Shown one piece after another: positions 29,570 through 38,537 of a stretch of 60,541 nt of DNA. The DNA is from an uncultured Chlorobiales bacterium (GTDB taxonomy: Bacteria; Bacteroidota; Chlorobiia; Chlorobiales; Thermochlorobacteraceae). Every line of letters begins with the position of its first letter. Position 1 is the first letter of the stretch. The translations under genes were made by a program, and so were the position numbers. The stretch spans positions 1-60,541 of the forward strand of contig CALKXI010000053.1 in assembly GCA_938003965.1 (NCBI GenBank), read 5' to 3'. A model generated the notes under the pieces. The model worked only from the letters and a program-made list of their open reading frames with translations. It did no database searches and was not told the DNA's origin.

Positions 29570-31006
29570 ATGGCTAAGCACATAACGCTTTTCAGGCTTT
29601 GTGCACTCCTTTTGTGTGCGTCGCCTGCATCAGCCCAATCAACACAGCCTACTGTTCCTACCGATACGCTCACGCTTGAACGATGTATTCAACTTGCCAT
29701 AGAAAATTCGTTTGCTGTCTTGCGAGCCCAAAACACGCTCGAGCTTACAGGCACAGCATTAGTTCAAGCATACGGGCAGTTTCTGCCTGATTTGCGTGTC
29801 AATGTTGGGTTTACACCACTGACAGTTAATAACAGTTTGCAAGGTCAGTTGAATCCCCTTGATAGCACGCTCTTTTTCAACTTGCGCGGTTCAGAAGGCA
29901 AGAGTGCAAACTATAACATCAGTTCCTCGCTCAACCTCTTTAATGGATTCTCTGATGTTGCCGGTTTGCGCCGAGCGATGAAGCAAAAAGATGCCGATAC
30001 GTATTCGCTCACACGAGCCAAGCAAGACATCGCGTTCAATGTGGCTCAAAGTTATTTGCAAGTGCTTTTGAACGAGGAGCTTTTGCACATTGCACGGGAA
30101 AATTTGAAGTCCTCGCAAGAGCGATTGCGGCAGTTCAGAGAGCAAACGCGTGTCGGTTCGCGTGCTATTGCGGATTTGTATCAACAAGAAGCACAAGCGG
30201 CAAACGATGAACTGACCGTAATACAGCGCGAAAACGCCTTGCGTAACAGTAAAATTTTATTGCTCCGACAAATTCGCGCCGACCTTGAAAAAGAATATGT
30301 CTTTGCCATTCCGCCAAGTGATACCGTCATTTTGGGCGTTGAATTTCAGAATGTTGCTCGGCTCATTGAATCTGCGCTTGCAACGCGTGCTGACTTGAAA
30401 GCGCGTGAAAAAGCCATTGAAGCAGCGCTATGGGCAGTTCGCGCTTCCGAAGGCAACTATTTGCCAACACTGAGCCTGAACTTTAACTACGGCGCAAACG
30501 CATTCACGCAAGAGCGTTTGACGATTGACGGACAACCGCGTCCGCCCGCCGTTCTGCCAGATTTTACCCGACAGTTGCGCGACCAAACAAGCTACAACAT
30601 CTCGCTCAATTTGAATTGGAACATCTTTGACCGATTCTCGCGTGAGTTGCAACTCCAACAAGCCAAAATCAATGAGAAGAATGCGCAGTTGGCTTTTGAA
30701 GAATTGAAACTTCAAATTATCGGCGAGGTCAAACAAGCACTCGGCGATTACAATGCTGCGGTCTTGCAACTGGCCGCAAGCGAAAAAGGTTTAATTTCTG
30801 CTAAACAAGCCTACGAAACCATCGCAAAGCGATATGAGGTTGGCTCAGCAAATTTTGTTGAACTCATCACGCAACAAGCAGCTCTCGTTCAAGCACAATC
30901 AAATCGCGCACAAGCCTTGTTTAACTTTACTTTCCAAAAGAAAATTCTCGAATACTATCTTGGCACGATTGATTTAAGGAAATACGAGGTCGGTGCAAAG
31001 CATTGA
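29570..31006 (+). CDS. TolC-family outer-membrane efflux protein
   Basis: 478 aa. Signal peptide ...CASPASAQ and duplicated OEP-type coiled/beta repeats (LTLERCIQLAIENS..., RADLKAREKAIEAA...). Confidence 0.8.
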   Translation: MAKHITLFRLCALLLCASPASAQSTQPTVPTDTLTLERCIQLAIENSFAVLRAQNTLELTGTALVQAYGQFLPDLRVNVGFTPLTVNNSLQGQLNPLDSTLFFNLRGSEGKSANYNISSSLNLFNGFSDVAGLRRAMKQKDADTYSLTRAKQDIAFNVAQSYLQVLLNEELLHIARENLKSSQERLRQFREQTRVGSRAIADLYQQEAQAANDELTVIQRENALRNSKILLLRQIRADLEKEYVFAIPPSDTVILGVEFQNVARLIESALATRADLKAREKAIEAALWAVRASEGNYLPTLSLNFNYGANAFTQERLTIDGQPRPPAVLPDFTRQLRDQTSYNISLNLNWNIFDRFSRELQLQQAKINEKNAQLAFEELKLQIIGEVKQALGDYNAAVLQLAASEKGLISAKQAYETIAKRYEVGSANFVELITQQAALVQAQSNRAQALFNFTFQKKILEYYLGTIDLRKYEVGAKH

Positions 31007-31042: not shown

Positions 31043-32434
31043 ATGGCGATGTTTGCAGAAACAGAGACAACGATTCAAGCAACGTCATCAAAGATGACGA
31101 CGGAATCCACTGCCAAGCCCAGTGGCAAGAAAAAACAACCGAAGCGCAAATGGTTCTGGATAGGTGTCGGCGTCAGTCTTCTTGTGCTGATTGTGATTGG
31201 CGTGTTTGGCGGTAAGAAACCGCCACCATTGACTGTCAGCACTGAAAAAGCAACGGTGCGCACCATTACGCAGATTGTCTCGGCAACAGGGAAAATTCAC
31301 CCGCAGACGGAAGTGAAACTTGCGCCCGAAGTTTCAGGCGAAATTGTTGCCTTGCCCGTCAAAGAGGGAGACGCGGTCAAGAAAGGGCAGCTGCTCTTTC
31401 GCATCAATCCCGAAGTAACAAAAGCACAAGTCGAGCAAGCCGCTGCGGCGCTCTCTGCCGCCAAAGCGCAAAACCTGCAAGCCAAAGCGCAACTTTTGCT
31501 CCGCGAAGATGAACTCCGACGCGCCAAAGAACTCTATAATCAAAAACTCATTTCGGAATCCGAATACCTGACAGCGATAACCAACGCCGAAGTCGCCAAA
31601 GCCAACTACGAAGCCTCGCTCTTTGATATTCAACGCTTGGAAAGCCAACTGCGCCAACAGCGTGAAAACCTCTCGCGCACGACGGTTTATTCACCTATCG
31701 ACGGGCACATCACGCTCCTGACGTCCAAACTCGGCGAGCGCGTCGTCGGCACCAGCATGATGACAGGCACAGAAGTAATGCGCGTTGCCGATTTGAACCA
31801 AATGGAAGTGCGCGTCGATGTCAATGAAAACGATATTGTGCTCGTCAAACTTGGCGACACTGCGCGCATTAGCGTTGATGCATATCCCAATCAAAAATTC
31901 ACAGGCGTCGTCTATGAAATCGCAAACATGGCTAAAACCACAGGCGCAGGCACGCAAGAACAAGTAACAAACTTCGAAGTCAAAATTCGCATTACCGACC
32001 ATCAAGGCAAACTGCGCCCCGGCATGAGTGCAAATGCTGACATTGAAACCGAGACAGCAACCAATGTGCTCACCGTTCCCATTCAAAGCGTAACAGTGCG
32101 CAACATTGAGGAAGGATTGAGTGCCGAAGAACTGGCTGAACAACGAGAAATGAAGGACCGTCAATCGGGAGATAACACCTCTACAGTGGCGAAAAATCAA
32201 GCCCTTCAAGCACGTGCCGATAGAGAAAAACTCTCACGAGTTGTCTTTGTCAAAGAAGGCGACATCGTGCGGATGAGAAAAGTCGAGACGGGCATTGCAG
32301 ACAATACCTATATGCACATTAAATCAGGCTTGAAAGAAGGCGAAGAGGTCGTCTCTGGACCTTATCGCGCCATCAGCCGCGAACTCAAAGACAGCACGAG
32401 GGTAAAGCTCGAAGTTACATCGATGAAAAAGTAA
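31043..32434 (+). CDS. efflux periplasmic adaptor (HlyD/MacA family)
   Basis: 463 aa. N-terminal TM anchor, lipoyl-like hairpin (SGEIVALPVKEGDAVKKGQLLFRI ... SPIDGHIT) and a long coiled coil. Confidence 0.8.
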   Translation: MAMFAETETTIQATSSKMTTESTAKPSGKKKQPKRKWFWIGVGVSLLVLIVIGVFGGKKPPPLTVSTEKATVRTITQIVSATGKIHPQTEVKLAPEVSGEIVALPVKEGDAVKKGQLLFRINPEVTKAQVEQAAAALSAAKAQNLQAKAQLLLREDELRRAKELYNQKLISESEYLTAITNAEVAKANYEASLFDIQRLESQLRQQRENLSRTTVYSPIDGHITLLTSKLGERVVGTSMMTGTEVMRVADLNQMEVRVDVNENDIVLVKLGDTARISVDAYPNQKFTGVVYEIANMAKTTGAGTQEQVTNFEVKIRITDHQGKLRPGMSANADIETETATNVLTVPIQSVTVRNIEEGLSAEELAEQREMKDRQSGDNTSTVAKNQALQARADREKLSRVVFVKEGDIVRMRKVETGIADNTYMHIKSGLKEGEEVVSGPYRAISRELKDSTRVKLEVTSMKK

Positions 32435-32470: not shown

Positions 32471-33205
32471 ATGGAGCAGCACACACTCAGACCTAAGGGC
32501 GACCTCGTCATTCACATTCAAGGGGTAACCAAAGAATACAAAATGGGCGACGAAATCGTCCGCGCTTTGCGAGGCGTCGACTTATCCATTCATCGAAATG
32601 AATATGTCGCAATCATGGGTCCCTCAGGAAGCGGCAAATCAACCATGATGAACCTGCTCGGCTGTCTGGATACACCGACTTCAGGCAAGTATGAGTTCAA
32701 CGGCAAAGATGTTGCCACAATGGAAGACGACGAGTTGGCTGAAATCCGAAATAAAGAAATCGGCTTTGTGTTCCAAACCTTCAATTTACTTCCGCGCTCG
32801 ACAGCTCTGCAAAATGTCGAGTTGCCGCTTGTCTATGCCGGTCTCCCAAGTGAAGAGCGTCGCGCAAAAGCCTTAGCCGCACTGCAAAGCGTTGGGCTTG
32901 GCGACCGTGTTCATCATAAGCCAAACGAACTTTCAGGCGGACAGCGACAGCGCGTCGCCATTGCCCGTGCCCTCGTCAATAATCCCTCTATTATTCTTGC
33001 CGACGAGCCAACGGGAAATCTGGACACGAAAACCAGCGTGGAGATTATGAACATCTTTGAAACGCTTTACGAACAGGGCAATACGATTATCGTCGTTACC
33101 CACGAAGAAGACATTGCACGCCACGCGCGGCGCATTGTGCGCTTGCGCGATGGACTCATTGAAAGCGACCGACTCATTTCCGAAATGGAATTTGCCAAAG
33201 CGTAA
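32471..33205 (+). CDS. ABC transporter ATP-binding protein (MacB/LolD type)
   Basis: 244 aa. Walker [10 protein letters not shown], signature LSGGQRQR, Walker [12 protein letters not shown]. Confidence 0.9.
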
Positions 33206-33208
33206 CAC

Positions 33209-33961
33209 GTGAGAACAGATAAACTCGCATACCTTTGGCTTCAAGAAATTCCCGAAGGATTTTTCTCGCTGATTGGGCGCAATAAGTCTGACAAGAATCA
33301 CTACCAGTTTCAATCCGTTGAACTCAAAGAAGCATCGTTTCGTATTGATGGCGTTTTTGTGCCACAAACAGATGACCTCACTTACTTTGTTGAAGTTCAA
33401 TTTCAGCGCGATAGCACCTTCTATGCTCGATTGTTTGCGCAAATTTTTCTTTATTTGAAACAATTTGGTGGCTGTCGCTGGCGCGCCGTTGTGATCTATC
33501 CTGATAGAAACACTGAACAGACAAGCCTTGTTGGATATGAAGAGATGCTTCAGACTGGCTTAATTCAGCGCGTTTATTTAGATGAACTGCCGAGCCTGAA
33601 ACAGTTGGACGCCGAAGTTGGTATCTTCAAGTTGATTGTAGAGCCTGAAACGACTGCAATCAAAGAGGCAAAAAGTTTGGTCGAGCGTGCGCCTGAACAT
33701 TTGGATTTTGTTGAGCGAGTCATCTTCTACAAATTCAAAAACTTATCACGAAAGGAGATTTTGAAAATGCTAAGCATTAGGGAAGAGTTCGAGGAAGAAC
33801 TGAAAAAAACAAGAGCCTATCAAGAAATCTTGGAAGAAGGTCGGCAAGAAGGGAAACTGCGAGCAGTTGCTTTCCTTCGCGAGTTGGGTGTATCTGATGA
33901 AGTAATTGCCGAGCGATTAGAGTTGCCGCTTGATGAAGTGAAGAAAGTCCAATCCAAATAA
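33209..33961 (+). CDS. Rpn-family (DUF2887/YhgA-like) PD-(D/E)XK nuclease with DUF4351-like C-terminus
   Basis: 250 aa with a GTG start. N-terminal MRTDKLAYLWLQEIPEGFFSLIG...YQFQSVELKEASFRIDGVFVP...YFVEVQFQRD is the DUF2887/Rpn pattern (D...E-V-Q core). The C-terminus EEGRQEGKLRAVAFLRELGVSDEVIAERLELPLDEV is DUF4351-like. Lies 3 nt after the ATPase stop and 6 nt before the permease start. Confidence 0.7.
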   Translation: MRTDKLAYLWLQEIPEGFFSLIGRNKSDKNHYQFQSVELKEASFRIDGVFVPQTDDLTYFVEVQFQRDSTFYARLFAQIFLYLKQFGGCRWRAVVIYPDRNTEQTSLVGYEEMLQTGLIQRVYLDELPSLKQLDAEVGIFKLIVEPETTAIKEAKSLVERAPEHLDFVERVIFYKFKNLSRKEILKMLSIREEFEEELKKTRAYQEILEEGRQEGKLRAVAFLRELGVSDEVIAERLELPLDEVKKVQSK

Positions 33962-33967
33962 CGAACT

Positions 33968-35215
33968 ATGCGCCAATGGTTTTACGAGTTCGCGGAAAGT
34001 TGCCGCATTGCCTACGCGCAAATCATGGCAAACAAGGTCCGTTCCTTTCTGACGGCTCTTGGCGTGATTATCGGCATTCTTGCCGTTACCCTTATGGGCA
34101 CTGCCATCAACGGAATTGATAAAGGATTTGAAAATAGTCTTTCAATGATTGGCTACGACGTGCTCTACGTTCAAAAATGGCCTTGGGCAGACAACAGCAA
34201 TTCGTGGTGGATTTACCGCAATCGCCGGCCTATCAAAACAGAATATGCTGATGAAATTAATCGCATCATTGAGGCTTCACCTCGCACTGAACTTGTTACT
34301 GCTGTGCCACAAGGCGTCAAATTTGCCGCCGTTAAACGCAACGATAGGCAAATCAATACGGTCTTTCTAATGGGCACAACAGAAGAGTATCCGCGTATTT
34401 CAAGCGTCGATATCAAAGAAGGTCGCTTCTTTAACGGCGTCGAAGAACGCGGCGCAAGGCAAGTTTGCGTGATTGGATACGACATCGCTGAAGGTTTATT
34501 CCCTAACGAAAGTCCCATTGGTAAAACCATTCAAATCGCCAATTTTCAATGCGTTGTCCTCGGTGTGATTGAAAAGCAAGGTAAGTTTTTAGGCTTGTTC
34601 AGTTTCGATTCGCAAGTGATTATGCCCTTGGGAACACTAAAAAAACACTTTGGGGCTTCGCGCGACGACCGCGTGGTGGTCAAAGTCAAAGACAAAACCC
34701 GAATCGCAGAAGCCAAAGATGAACTCACAGGCATTATGCGCCGCGTGCGAGGGCTTAAGCCAGAAGTCAAAGATGATTTTTCAATCAACGAACAAGAAGC
34801 ATTCAAGAGCACGTTAGACCCCATCAAGAACGGCATTGCATTGGCAGGGCTGTTCATCACAGGGCTTTCGCTTTTCGTTGGCGCAATCGGAATTATGAAT
34901 ATTACTTTCGTGAGCGTCAAAGAGCGCACCAGAGAAATCGGCACGCGCAAAGCATTAGGCGCAAAGCGTCGCACGATTCTCATGCAGTTCTTGGTCGAAG
35001 CCGTTGCAATTTGCATCGTGGGCGGCGTGATTGGGCTTGTGCTTGCCTTCGCATTGAGTTTAGCCATGCAAGCGGCGAATTTTCCCGCAGAGTTTTCGCT
35101 CTCGCTCGTGCTGGGCGCAATGTTGGCGTCCATACTCACTGGTGTGATTTCAGGCTTTGCGCCCGCCTATTCGGCTTCAAAGTTAGACCCTGTTGTCGCA
35201 CTGCGCTATGAATAA
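33968..35215 (+). CDS. ABC transporter permease (MacB-like periplasmic domain + FtsX)
   Basis: 415 aa. N-terminal TM, large periplasmic domain, C-terminal FtsX-type three-TM block (ERTREIGTRKALGA). Confidence 0.85.
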   Translation: MRQWFYEFAESCRIAYAQIMANKVRSFLTALGVIIGILAVTLMGTAINGIDKGFENSLSMIGYDVLYVQKWPWADNSNSWWIYRNRRPIKTEYADEINRIIEASPRTELVTAVPQGVKFAAVKRNDRQINTVFLMGTTEEYPRISSVDIKEGRFFNGVEERGARQVCVIGYDIAEGLFPNESPIGKTIQIANFQCVVLGVIEKQGKFLGLFSFDSQVIMPLGTLKKHFGASRDDRVVVKVKDKTRIAEAKDELTGIMRRVRGLKPEVKDDFSINEQEAFKSTLDPIKNGIALAGLFITGLSLFVGAIGIMNITFVSVKERTREIGTRKALGAKRRTILMQFLVEAVAICIVGGVIGLVLAFALSLAMQAANFPAEFSLSLVLGAMLASILTGVISGFAPAYSASKLDPVVALRYE

Positions 35216-35231
35216 CTAATCCGCTCCAACG

Positions 35232-36467
35232 ATGGAATACAAGGAAATTGTGTCAATGGCATTTGCATCACTGCAAAGCAACAAATTGCGTTCAGGACTG
35301 ACCATGCTCGGCATTACCGTCGGCGTCTTTTCCATCATTGGCGTTATGACCATTCTCGGCGCACTGCAAACCACGATTGAAAAAGGACTCTCCGAACTCG
35401 GCACGAACACGTTTCAAATTCAGAAATATCCTGCAACGCTCTTCGGCGGCGGCGGCATAGATAGAACCAAATACAACAACCGCCGCGACATCACCTACGA
35501 CGAAGCACAACAGTTCAAACGCTTGATGGGTAACGATGCGAAAATTGGACTTGAACTCTCAACAGGCGCAAAGCAAGCCGTCTATCAAGGCAAAAAAACA
35601 AATCCTAACCTTCGCTTAGCAGGTGGCGACGCCAACTACATCACCAACAACAGCTACACCCTCGCCTACGGCAGAAACATCAGCGATGAAGACGTGCTCT
35701 ATGCGCGTAGCGTGATTGTAATCGGCGACGGCATTCAAAAACTACTCTTCGAGTCGGAAAATCCTATCGGCAGAGAACTGAAATTCGACGGAAGAAACTA
35801 CACCATCATCGGCGTCTTGGAACTCAAAGGCAGTGCATTTGGACAGGGGCAAGATAACTTCGCACTGATTCCCATCTCACGATTTCTCATTAACTACGGG
35901 CGCGCACAGCGAAGCATTAACATTACGGTTCAAGCCCCGTCGCAAGAAACCTATCAAAGCACCATGGATAAATCGATTGGCGCAATGCGAATCGCTCGTG
36001 GATTGCAGGCGGAAGATTTGAACGATTTTGAAATCTACGCCAATGATTCGCTCGTCAAACAGTTTCAAGATTTTGCGGGCGTCATTCGCATCGGCGCATT
36101 CGTCATTAGCTTCATCTCGCTTCTCACTGCTGGCGTTGGCATTATGAACATTATGCTCGTGAGCGTTACAGAACGCACAAAAGAAATCGGCATACGCAAA
36201 TCTATCGGCGCGAAAAAAAACAACATCTTAACACAATTTTTAATTGAAGCGACCGTGCTTTCAGTGTCGGGCGGCTTGCTCGGCATTTTCGTTGGCGTCG
36301 TGCTTGGAAATGTGGTTGCCGCTTCGATGAGCGCGCCGTTTGTTTTTCCGCTTGATTGGGCGGCAATTGGCTTGCTGGTTTGCTCTGCAATCGGCGTTGG
36401 CTTTGGTTTCTATCCTGCCTACAAAGCCGCTTCGTTAGACCCTATCGAAGCCTTACGGTTTGAATAA
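35232..36467 (+). CDS. ABC transporter permease (MacB-like periplasmic domain + FtsX), second copy
   Basis: 411 aa, paralogous in architecture to the preceding gene (ERTKEIGIRKSIGA). Confidence 0.85.
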   Translation: MEYKEIVSMAFASLQSNKLRSGLTMLGITVGVFSIIGVMTILGALQTTIEKGLSELGTNTFQIQKYPATLFGGGGIDRTKYNNRRDITYDEAQQFKRLMGNDAKIGLELSTGAKQAVYQGKKTNPNLRLAGGDANYITNNSYTLAYGRNISDEDVLYARSVIVIGDGIQKLLFESENPIGRELKFDGRNYTIIGVLELKGSAFGQGQDNFALIPISRFLINYGRAQRSINITVQAPSQETYQSTMDKSIGAMRIARGLQAEDLNDFEIYANDSLVKQFQDFAGVIRIGAFVISFISLLTAGVGIMNIMLVSVTERTKEIGIRKSIGAKKNNILTQFLIEATVLSVSGGLLGIFVGVVLGNVVAASMSAPFVFPLDWAAIGLLVCSAIGVGFGFYPAYKAASLDPIEALRFE

Positions 36468-38537
36468 TCAAAATCTCGCACGAAGTCCTAACCCAAACAC
36501 GCTTGGAGAATTGGTGTTGAATCGGTCGTTGCCGGTTCCGACGCTTTCAACGCCATCGCGATACAAGTTTGCAAAGCGCGCCGCAAGTTCGACTTGCTTG
36601 AAAAGTTGATAACGCAAGTTAAGCAAGAGCCGCCTCCCTGTGCCAAAGTGCGCGTAAATGGTGGCTAAGAGCGGCAGGTCGTATTCGTAAGCGTAAATGG
36701 CGGCGTCGAAGGCATCAACTTGAAAAACAGCAACACGCGCATCAAGCGAAAGCCGATTTTGAAGTGCGTCGATATTCGCCTCTTGATAAATCAGCCAGCC
36801 GTTAAACGCTTCTTTCCCACTCACGAAGGTTTTTTCCACTTGTTTGTATTCCAAGCGCGTGCGCAGGCGCAGTTGCGATGAGACTTGATAAACGAAATCC
36901 GTCCGCACCCGTGAAAGCACGACAGGCACAGCGATTCGATATTCGCGATTGAAATTATCAACCTGCGTGAGCGCGTCTTCGGTGTATTTACGCTGAACAA
37001 GCGGCTCAATGAGCAAATTGCGCGTAGGTTTGTAAGAGAGTTGAAAAAGCAAATCGTCGCCCGACCACGCAAGCACCGTGCTAGCGTTGATAAACGGAAT
37101 GCGGAAAATATCGTAGTAGCCACGCACCGAAACTTCCTCGTTCAATTTCATTTGCACGCCGAAATAAATGCCTTCTTCGTTTCGCGCTTGTGAGCCGCGT
37201 TCCGCAAAGGCATTGGCGTAGGGCGAATAAAAGGCTTGTGAATACTTGCGTGCAAGGAGAATCGTTTTTAATCGCTTTTGAAATTTTCCTTCTAACCCAA
37301 CGACGAGCGAGTTAGCATCTTGTTGGAGCGAGCGTGCCACTTCGCCGAAGAGTGTGAAGTTGTAAAGTGAAAAATCCCAATTCGTAGAGGCGACGGTAAT
37401 GCGTGAGCCGTTGAAGCGAAAAGCGTTGGCAATCGTTGGCGCAGGTTGAAAGGGTAATGAAAATTCGGACTCGTAGAGCGTTGCGCCAACTTTGAAAAAG
37501 GTTTGCGCCGTTCCAAATGCATAACTTACATGCCCGCCGAGGGTCGTTTGACCGACGCTGTTTCTTCGGTTGAGTTCAGTTTCGGTGCGATGCAGTCCTG
37601 AAAAGTCAATGCTGGTGAAGGCAGTGTCGTTGGTGGTGGCAGAAAGGCGATTGTTGGAGTAGAAGAAAATCGTTGTCAAGTCGCCGAATTTCAGTTCGGT
37701 AGCGACGCCGCGAAAAAAGTTTTGCTCAACAGTTGAAGCGTAAAGTCGGACGGGGTTTCGTGAAACTCGGGCAGTTGTAACGGCTTCGGCACTTTTGAAG
37801 AAGGCGCGTCCGCTGTTGATAGCAAGCCCTTGTCCAAACGAGAGGTTATAGTCGCCAATGACGAGCGTTTTCAGGTTATAGATGTCGCGCACTTGAAAAC
37901 TGGCGGAATAAAAATCGGTCAAATTTGGTTCGCCAACATCTTTTTCGGTGAGTGCAGAGACCGCAAAGTTTTCGGAGAGAAAGGCTTGAACACGATTGTA
38001 GGCTTTGAACGAAGAGCCTTGATAGCGTCCGTTCAAAATGCCTTGCCGAGCGGGCGATTCAAAGCCGCTACGCGCAAGATACTCAATGCGTAGTTGCTCG
38101 CCGAGCATGCCGTTTTTGTAATCGCTAATAAAAGCAGGCTCGAACGGATTGCGATAGAGCCGTGCATCGCCGACAGTTACGAAGTTTTCAATCAATCGAT
38201 AAGTGTCTTCGTCCAAAATCTCGCGCAACGATTCAACACTCGCAATGAGGTTCACTTCTTTGCGATACGACAAAATCCGCTGTGCATCGGTCGCTGAAAG
38301 AAACGGAATAGAAAGCAGGCGGGAAAAATCGGCGGTGTTGAGATTGACTTTTTGGCGACGCAGGAAATTGAATTGCTCCAAGAGTTCGCTGTTGCCGCTT
38401 TGTTCATCGGAAAGGTCTAAAAGTCGATCGAGCGTTTGGGTTGGAATCTCATCGTCAGCCTCTTGTGCGTATGCTGAAAGCACTGTCAGCGTCATCAAAC
38501 ACATTATGAGCGCATAGATGTGGAGAACGGGCTTCAT
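36468..38537 (-). CDS. outer-membrane protein with N-terminal helix-hairpin-helix (ComEA-like) motif
   Basis: 689 aa. Signal peptide ...LSAYAQ and an HhH-like KVNLNTADFSRLLSIPFLSATDAQRILSYRKE. The remaining ~550 aa are beta-barrel-like and end in ...GLGLRARF. Confidence 0.6.
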   Translation of the reverse strand: MKPVLHIYALIMCLMTLTVLSAYAQEADDEIPTQTLDRLLDLSDEQSGNSELLEQFNFLRRQKVNLNTADFSRLLSIPFLSATDAQRILSYRKEVNLIASVESLREILDEDTYRLIENFVTVGDARLYRNPFEPAFISDYKNGMLGEQLRIEYLARSGFESPARQGILNGRYQGSSFKAYNRVQAFLSENFAVSALTEKDVGEPNLTDFYSASFQVRDIYNLKTLVIGDYNLSFGQGLAINSGRAFFKSAEAVTTARVSRNPVRLYASTVEQNFFRGVATELKFGDLTTIFFYSNNRLSATTNDTAFTSIDFSGLHRTETELNRRNSVGQTTLGGHVSYAFGTAQTFFKVGATLYESEFSLPFQPAPTIANAFRFNGSRITVASTNWDFSLYNFTLFGEVARSLQQDANSLVVGLEGKFQKRLKTILLARKYSQAFYSPYANAFAERGSQARNEEGIYFGVQMKLNEEVSVRGYYDIFRIPFINASTVLAWSGDDLLFQLSYKPTRNLLIEPLVQRKYTEDALTQVDNFNREYRIAVPVVLSRVRTDFVYQVSSQLRLRTRLEYKQVEKTFVSGKEAFNGWLIYQEANIDALQNRLSLDARVAVFQVDAFDAAIYAYEYDLPLLATIYAHFGTGRRLLLNLRYQLFKQVELAARFANLYRDGVESVGTGNDRFNTNSPSVFGLGLRARF

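Follow-up and report, generated by a model that had tools for sequence, protein, structure and literature searches.

The closest described relatives of the system reported here are the Rpn proteins of Escherichia coli, among which RpnA-E and the plasmid-encoded RpnP2 are antiphage systems of the RpnL/RpnS type, that is, a toxin with an antitoxin encoded inside the same gene (PMC10400941; PMC5350276). The residues D11, D63, E82 and Q84 are essential in RpnA (PMC5350276), and the E-x-Q form of motif III has been reported for the DUF2887 family as well (PMC3045609). The design with an internal start has been shown experimentally for Rpn genes of E. coli and C. difficile, and inhibition by the short form has been shown for RpnA, RpnB, RpnC and RpnP2 (PMC10400941). 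According to Zhong et al. (2023), the RpnS proteins carry strain-variable four-residue repeats, each with one hydrophobic residue plus charged residues or glycine, which lie 8-20 residues after the internal Met and set the specificity of pairing between RpnS and RpnL (PMC10400941). The same work describes free-standing tail genes (the RpnSs arrangement) for E. coli rpnE-ypaA and reports that rpn genes in general have ends without inverted repeats or target duplication (PMC10400941). Besides, Laganeckas et al. (2010) proposed that a part of the DUF2887/YhgA-like proteins is homologous to the E-helix and helix-turn-helix (HTH) part of resolvases (PMC3045609).

We analysed a gene of this kind on a 60,541-nucleotide (nt) stretch of DNA from an uncultured Chlorobiales bacterium (contig CALKXI010000053.1 of assembly GCA_938003965.1), which is called the window below. 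The gene sits inside an operon for an efflux pump. The best overall explanation, which we regard as probable, is that it is a gene-within-gene toxin-antitoxin of the RpnL/RpnS type from the DUF2887 branch, which was inserted once into the pump operon and has been kept there vertically. All sequence-level hallmarks of RpnL/RpnS that could be tested are present, and it is well supported that the gene is a further example of the known system in an unusual context. Like the E. coli Rpn genes, it combines an N-terminal PD-(D/E)XK nuclease of the D...D...E-x-Q pattern with a candidate internal ribosome-binding site and ATG for a small C-terminal protein, with a long helix that carries strain-variable four-residue repeats, and with a small HTH-like helical bundle whose model matches the RpnA-S structure; it is also a single-gene insertion with neither inverted repeats nor target duplication, and free-standing tail genes exist in its family. 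Unlike them, it falls into a sister Pfam family, DUF2887 (PF11103) rather than PF04754, its protein is shorter (250 amino acids, aa), its repeats start about 21 residues after the internal Met instead of the 8-20 reported, and it has no evident promoter of its own. It resides in a pump operon and is vertically inherited in at least seven lineages, whereas E. coli rpn genes turn over fast and tend to lie near defence genes. The E. coli systems, moreover, were established by experiment, and the one in the window is described from sequence and models.

The open reading frame (ORF) matched PF11103 over the whole profile (positions 1-200 of 200; E=5.4e-59, 200 bits against a cut-off of 24.1). A second match, to TIGR01784 ([quoted passage not shown]), spanned model positions 9-273 of 273 and scored 71.4 bits, with the curated cut-off at 52.1. 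Both profiles place the ORF, as an intact protein, in the DUF2887 branch of Rpn nucleases, in line with a first-pass annotation, made from the letters alone, that had recognised an Rpn/DUF2887 nuclease in the N-terminus. The residues D4, D47, E62 and Q64, which have the same pattern as the essential residues of RpnA, are all present in the window protein and in every orthologue. In an alignment of 112 homologues, D4, D47 and Q64 were invariant and E62 was found in 107. The AlphaFold2 model of the full-length protein (predicted local distance difference test score, pLDDT, 88.6) consists of an alpha/beta core, a helical linker, a long helix (residues 202-225) and a small HTH. Its top fold matches in the Protein Data Bank (PDB) were PD-(D/E)XK proteins (1y88, EndoMS 5gke and NucS 2vld), which were weak, with E-values of 6e-3 or worse and template modelling (TM) scores of about 0.3; when the sequence of the full protein was searched against the PDB, only chance-level matches came up. 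Homology and anatomy together point to the long form being a PD-(D/E)XK DNA endonuclease.

The key feature inside this gene is an AAGGAG motif, a candidate Shine-Dalgarno (SD) sequence, followed after 9 nt by an in-frame ATG (Met187), from which a 64-aa product would be read. The first-pass annotation had pointed to this arrangement; we reproduced the motif, its spacing and the reading frame, together with the strand, length and boundaries of the whole ORF. All seven orthologous lineages share the motif, the 9-nt spacer and the ATG without any difference, although adjacent synonymous sites vary; Met187 is present in 111 of the 112 homologues. For the family-wide picture, we collected 59 dereplicated DUF2887 genes with DNA from metagenome contigs, which are related sequences, so that the counts are not independent trials. 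The internal ATG occurs in 59 of 59. Codon 182 keeps its final G in 56 despite amino acid change between E, Q and K (GAG 38, CAG 9, AAG 8), and codon 183 is GAG in 48. At the other positions of these genes, GAG, AAG and CAG account for 26-29% of the codons in their families (about 26% for GAG), and wobble G is enriched 3-fold at codons 182 and 183. Conservation at the internal site is therefore stronger in the nucleotides than in the protein, as expected of a ribosome-binding site. Despite the kinship of the sequences, simple inheritance is spoken against by codon 182, where the amino acid changes and the final AG stays.

Besides, the tail is encoded on its own at about ten loci, by free-standing genes whose first codon is the same Met and which have the same SD motif upstream. 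These tail-alone genes lie beside DUF2887 genes in metagenome loci (L101, L110, L112, L117, L125, L137, L140, L145, L154 and L159, the last with up to three in a row), keep the AGGAG-like upstream motif and differ in repeat number. SD sequences are otherwise scarce in the window: an SD-like motif of as little as 4 nt within 20 nt was found at only 3 of its 48 predicted starts, no more than the 5% background of this 60-kb stretch, and the organism seems rarely to use SD-led initiation, as in Bacteroidota. The start of fmoA (46752) carries CAGGAG. None of the full-length rpn starts, in the window or among the paralogues, has an SD. A weak AU-rich hairpin around the internal SD (33734-33765) was dropped from consideration, as it is not kept in orthologues. 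In addition, the summed depth of contigs from three runs increases by a factor of about 1.5 to 4 across 33729-33780, around the internal start, and the X1 and X3 contigs break at 33743-33772. This pattern suggests that the stretch is shared, nucleotide for nucleotide, by other copies or strains in the samples.

The tail of the window protein is of the HTH type. It had been described at first as DUF4351-like, and this has to be corrected: neither residues 187-250 nor residues 158-250 matched DUF4351 (PF14261) even at E<=10, whereas the control DUF2887 tails of L099 and L121 matched it at 6e-25 and 5e-23. Two alternative tails thus occur in the family behind the same Met and repeat zone, either HTH, as in the window, or DUF4351 (L099:3601-3870, L121:3598-3894, L145, L153). 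For the 64-aa product the AlphaFold2 model (pLDDT 86.6) places the repeats in the long helix. Compared with the crystal structure of E. coli RpnA-S (7th0), a three-helix bundle, it reaches a target-normalised TM of 0.83 and a root-mean-square deviation of 1.3 Å over 45 columns at 27% identity, the best TM in the fold-match list, with a Foldseek E-value of 2 for this very small domain. Resolvase chains are also found among the fold matches of the full-length and the 64-aa models. Like gamma-delta/Tn3 resolvase, the tail consists of a long helix and then a small HTH; unlike in that serine recombinase, the catalytic domain is PD-(D/E)XK and unrelated, and there is no evidence of site-specific recombination. 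A profile match of the tail to 8vd6 ("CAP repeat", 1e-22) was set aside as irrelevant, since the protein in this entry is an idealised repeat design made de novo (PMC12339374).

The four-residue repeats begin about 21 residues past the internal Met, within the predicted helix 202-225, and their copy number is hypervariable. When the units directly after AYQEILEEG are counted, the window has RQEG, L001 has RQEG RQEG, and L008 has RQEG LQEG. The row extends to KQEG VQQG followed by LQQG five times in L010 (seven units), RETG IQEG IQEG IQQG EKKG in L003, REEG RAEG VVKG in L004 and REQG VREG REKG VLEG in L174. The most telling pair is the window and L001, which differ over 12,765 nt by one substitution and one 12-nt indel; this sole indel is exactly one repeat unit (AAGAAGGTCGGC, behind 33833). 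Within one study, both repeat alleles turned up, each in the contigs of different samples. Runs of RQEG, KLEG, IEQG, LERG and KAEG occur in the tails family-wide.

To follow the history of the insert, we fetched orthologous operons via the first permease, with one genome per species. The insert is present in the same slot in seven lineages (window/L001/L007, L008, L010, L088, L003, L004 and L174), of which L088 is a metagenome contig and L174 a short contig. Protein identity to the window is 96-98% within its own species (L001, L002, L007), 92% for L008, 78% for L010, 75% for L003 and 71% for L004/L009. By the names that public sources assign to the nearest homologues, the organism belongs to Chloroherpetonaceae. 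The slot is empty in two genomes of Candidatus Thermochlorobacter, the nearest outgroup (L011 and L012; ATPase and permease genes 41 and 23 nt apart), in the Chlorobiales genome L030 (11 nt), and in about 70 operons from Verrucomicrobiota and others (median gap 20 nt). In the family tree the operon copies group together with strongly supported inner nodes, and the nearest outside copy lies in another context. Independent insertions were rejected, since the operon copies cluster in the tree and share a common slot, and a single old insertion in an ancestor of a Chloroherpetonaceae subclade, followed by vertical descent, is the simplest account of these sequences. The first-pass annotation had spoken of a gene that colonised the efflux operon. 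The filled and empty sites bear out a real insertion; its age and vertical inheritance do not fit a recent arrival. An insertion sequence or transposon was also rejected: the ends of the insert have no terminal inverted repeats or target-site duplication, in line with PMC10400941, and its two boundaries share only chance-level 13-nt matches. Junction lengths differ between lineages.

Between orthologues, the ratio of nonsynonymous to synonymous divergence (dN/dS) is 0.07-0.11 in the nuclease half as well as in the tail, with dS saturated in the deeper pairs. The low dN/dS and saturated dS mean that the gene is functional and old, and the former shows purifying selection on the insert since its entry. 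It evolves somewhat faster than its neighbours, with 71% identity in L004 against 78-92% for the flanks. For the deepest orthologue pairs, the proportion of synonymous differences is about 0.72 in the insert against 0.42-0.65 in the flanking pump genes. The GC content of the rpn gene is 42.5% (41.8% at third codon positions, GC3), compared with 47-51% (GC3 47-55%) in the flanking operon genes, so that it lies 5-8 points, and in GC3 about 10 points, under its neighbours; the composition is therefore not quite host-like, contrary to the first-pass annotation. The excess synonymous divergence and the lower GC3 could stem from weaker codon bias, from a higher rate of mutation or from exchange with paralogues. 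In L088 (L088:3001-3797; FWPU01000704.1), the long ORF stops near residue 139 owing to a 1-nt deletion, which leaves the SD, the ATG and an 80-aa tail ORF intact. This frameshift is found in a single assembly, public contigs of a related strain (about 4x) appear to read through, and it may be an assembly error or a strain-specific loss of the toxin.

The pump operon is one case of a lineage habit. Paralogues of the gene in Chloroherpetonaceae (L171/L172/L173:4001-4747; L169:4001-4819; L167:4001-4783; L090, L091:3001-3777) each follow an unrelated host gene of the same strand at a distance of 3-22 nt. One paralogue follows smc after 5 nt and overlaps the gene of a HAD hydrolase by 8 nt, another stands 15 nt after an amine oxidase gene, and a third is 3 nt after an S8 peptidase gene. 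Another one (P0006) lies 20 nt after an unknown gene and adjoins GmrSD defence genes, and one lies between a DUF294 nucleotidyltransferase gene, 13 nt upstream, and panD, 46 nt downstream. Among these, only the pump-operon copy is shown here to be retained across species. The DUF2887/"Rpn family" genes of cyanobacteria belong to the same Pfam family with 40-50% identity, and they have the same Met with AGGAG-9 nt-ATG and the same repeat zone; some are followed by stand-alone tail genes of the DUF4351 or HTH type. Unlike the Chloroherpetonaceae copies, most cyanobacterial-type members have an upstream spacer of 100-400 nt, some with DUF4351 tails, and presumably these copies have promoters of their own.

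The surrounding genes are, to judge from profile matches, a split MacAB-TolC-like tripartite ABC exporter. The features are collected in Table 1, where the five pump genes named in the first-pass annotation are confirmed by profile. The ATPase matches the nucleotide-binding domain (NBD) part of MacB and the permeases match its membrane part, which means that the insert sits at a junction that E. coli MacB has as one polypeptide. Between the ATPase stop codon and the rpn GTG there are 3 nt (CAC), and 6 nt separate the rpn stop codon from the permease ATG, as had been noted before. The second permease gene abuts a convergent gene for an HHH-motif outer-membrane barrel at 36467-36468, with zero spacer and no terminator-like site between them.

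Table 1. Features of the rpn gene and of the efflux operon in the window (positions are those of the window).
Feature	Position	Strand	Basis or remark
rpnL-like gene, full-length DUF2887/Rpn-family PD-(D/E)XK nuclease, 250 aa	33209..33961	+	PF11103, TIGR01784; GTG start, no SD
Catalytic motif span	33218..33400	+	D4 33218-20, D47 33347-49, E62 33392-94, Q64 33398-400
Internal Shine-Dalgarno AAGGAG	33752..33757	+	9 nt before internal ATG
rpnS-like nested ORF, predicted 64-aa C-terminal product	33767..33961	+	long helix + HTH
Four-residue repeat zone LEEG RQEG	33830..33853	+	in long helix; copy number hypervariable
TolC-like outer-membrane factor, gene 1 of efflux operon	29570..31006	+	Pfam OEP 6.9e-50; TIGR01844 TolC family 2.5e-41, below cut-off
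MacA/HlyD-type periplasmic adaptor	31043..32434	+	Pfam HlyD_D23, HlyD_3; TIGR01730 186.8 bits, above cut-off; MacA-like 6e-41
MacB-type ABC ATPase, separate NBD gene	32471..33205	+	Pfam ABC_tran 1.2e-35; match to MacB residues 5-225, 4.4e-82; TAA stop
First MacB-type permease, MacB_PCD + FtsX	33968..35215	+	Pfam; MacB residues 247-646, 2.8e-54
Second MacB-type permease, MacB_PCD + FtsX	35232..36467	+	Pfam; MacB-like 1.1e-50

The strain-variable repeats, the stand-alone tail genes at the same Met and the structural match to RpnA-S all support the reading as a toxin with an intragenic antitoxin, which had been suggested at first sight of the sequence. In such a mechanism, the nuclease of the long form, potentially toxic, would be joined via the long helix to the small HTH tail, and the internal AAGGAG-9 nt-ATG would yield the 64-aa RpnS-like tail alone. 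This tail would bind the tail of the long form through the repeat-bearing helix and keep the nuclease inactive; any role in phage defence would follow the E. coli example. A promoter and terminator scan of the operon gave no signal above shuffled controls, so that an internal promoter like that of the E. coli rpn genes is neither supported nor excluded by it. The lack of such signals, together with the tiny gaps on both sides in every filled lineage (3-14 nt upstream, 5-13 nt downstream), makes co-transcription with the pump genes probable. The long form begins with a GTG or ATG that lacks an SD and follows the stop of the ATPase gene (TAA in the window) by 3-14 nt, which suggests that it would be translated weakly, by coupling to that stop. 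The internal SD, one of the few strong ones in an SD-poor stretch, would drive the short form, giving an excess of antitoxin.

More tentatively, these elements may be combined into one proposal, a promoter-less "tail-gater", which we consider possible but doubtful as a whole. Rpn cassettes of Chloroherpetonaceae would land just behind host stop codons in the same orientation, the toxin would be made by weak termination-reinitiation and the antitoxin from the strong SD, and the nested ORF would hand ribosomes to the permease 6 nt further on. If this were true, the insert would be non-polar and hard to lose, which would explain the fixation of a fast-turnover defence gene in a housekeeping operon across at least seven lineages.

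Several points weigh against a toxin-antitoxin in the pump operon. Initiation at the internal start, joint transcription with the pump genes and coupling are all argued from sequence logic, in a genome that rarely uses SD sequences, and the Foldseek E-values of the full-length and 64-aa models are not significant by themselves. The copy in the pump operon has pump genes as neighbours and no flanking defence genes, and a PADLOC scan found no matching model. Moreover, its long vertical retention in a housekeeping operon differs from the fast gain and loss of rpn genes (PMC10400941) and could mean a domesticated role.

Such domestication would make it an Rpn protein with a pump-linked housekeeping job, either as a DNA-binding regulator through the HTH tail or as a nuclease acting on DNA that is taken up or damaged under the stress met by the pump, and no longer a module of conflict or defence. 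We think this is unlikely. It would account for the constant slot in seven lineages with saturated dS and dN/dS of about 0.1 and for the lack of adjacent defence genes, and Zhong et al. allow housekeeping roles for some Rpn proteins (PMC10400941). However, about 70 orthologous operons, the closest outgroup among them, work without the insert, and close paralogues stand behind genes as unrelated as smc and those of an amine oxidase, an S8 peptidase and a DUF294 nucleotidyltransferase. The hypervariability of the repeat helix between near-identical strains also fits conflict or a turnover of specificity and not a fixed housekeeping partner.

Slightly less probable again is a trapped selfish passenger that is kept by its position and not for any use of the nuclease, mainly for want of a clean way to lose it, because loss of the antitoxin part would be toxic and the permease cistron may depend on ribosomes arriving from the nested ORF. 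The tight gaps in all lineages agree with this, as do the permease start, which has no SD with or without the insert, and L088, where the tail ORF outlives the long one. The same permease start can be turned around, for operons with an empty site lack the SD too and coupling to the upstream cistron is not obviously required. The L088 frameshift comes from one assembly and the related low-coverage contig appears to read through, while dN/dS is as low in the nuclease half as in the tail (0.05-0.12), so that the nuclease itself is under selection. The weakest alternative, that Met187 is structural, AGGAG is a protein or codon constraint or a translational pause site, and only the 250-aa protein is made, draws on the scarcity of SD-led initiation and on the same reliance on sequence logic, but it is very improbable given the nucleotide conservation and 3-fold wobble-G enrichment at codons 182 and 183, the independent stand-alone genes that begin at exactly the Met187 equivalent behind the same motif, and the experimental precedent in E. 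coli and C. difficile.

In conclusion, the probable toxin-antitoxin gene in the pump operon extends the RpnL/RpnS design to the DUF2887 branch of Chlorobi relatives and cyanobacteria, with codon-level and comparative evidence. It also provides a clean natural case, dated by filled and empty sites, of a toxin/intragenic-antitoxin gene long resident in a housekeeping operon, as opposed to the usual coming and going in defence islands; our literature search, whose coverage was incomplete, found no paper on an rpn gene fixed inside a transport operon. For annotation, the "Rpn family" genes of these genomes may be flagged as putatively encoding two products. If the expression logic of a weakly coupled toxin, an SD-driven antitoxin and a hand-over of ribosomes is true, this locus would show how such a gene can ride on host transcription without harm to the operon, and how an insertion can become locked in.

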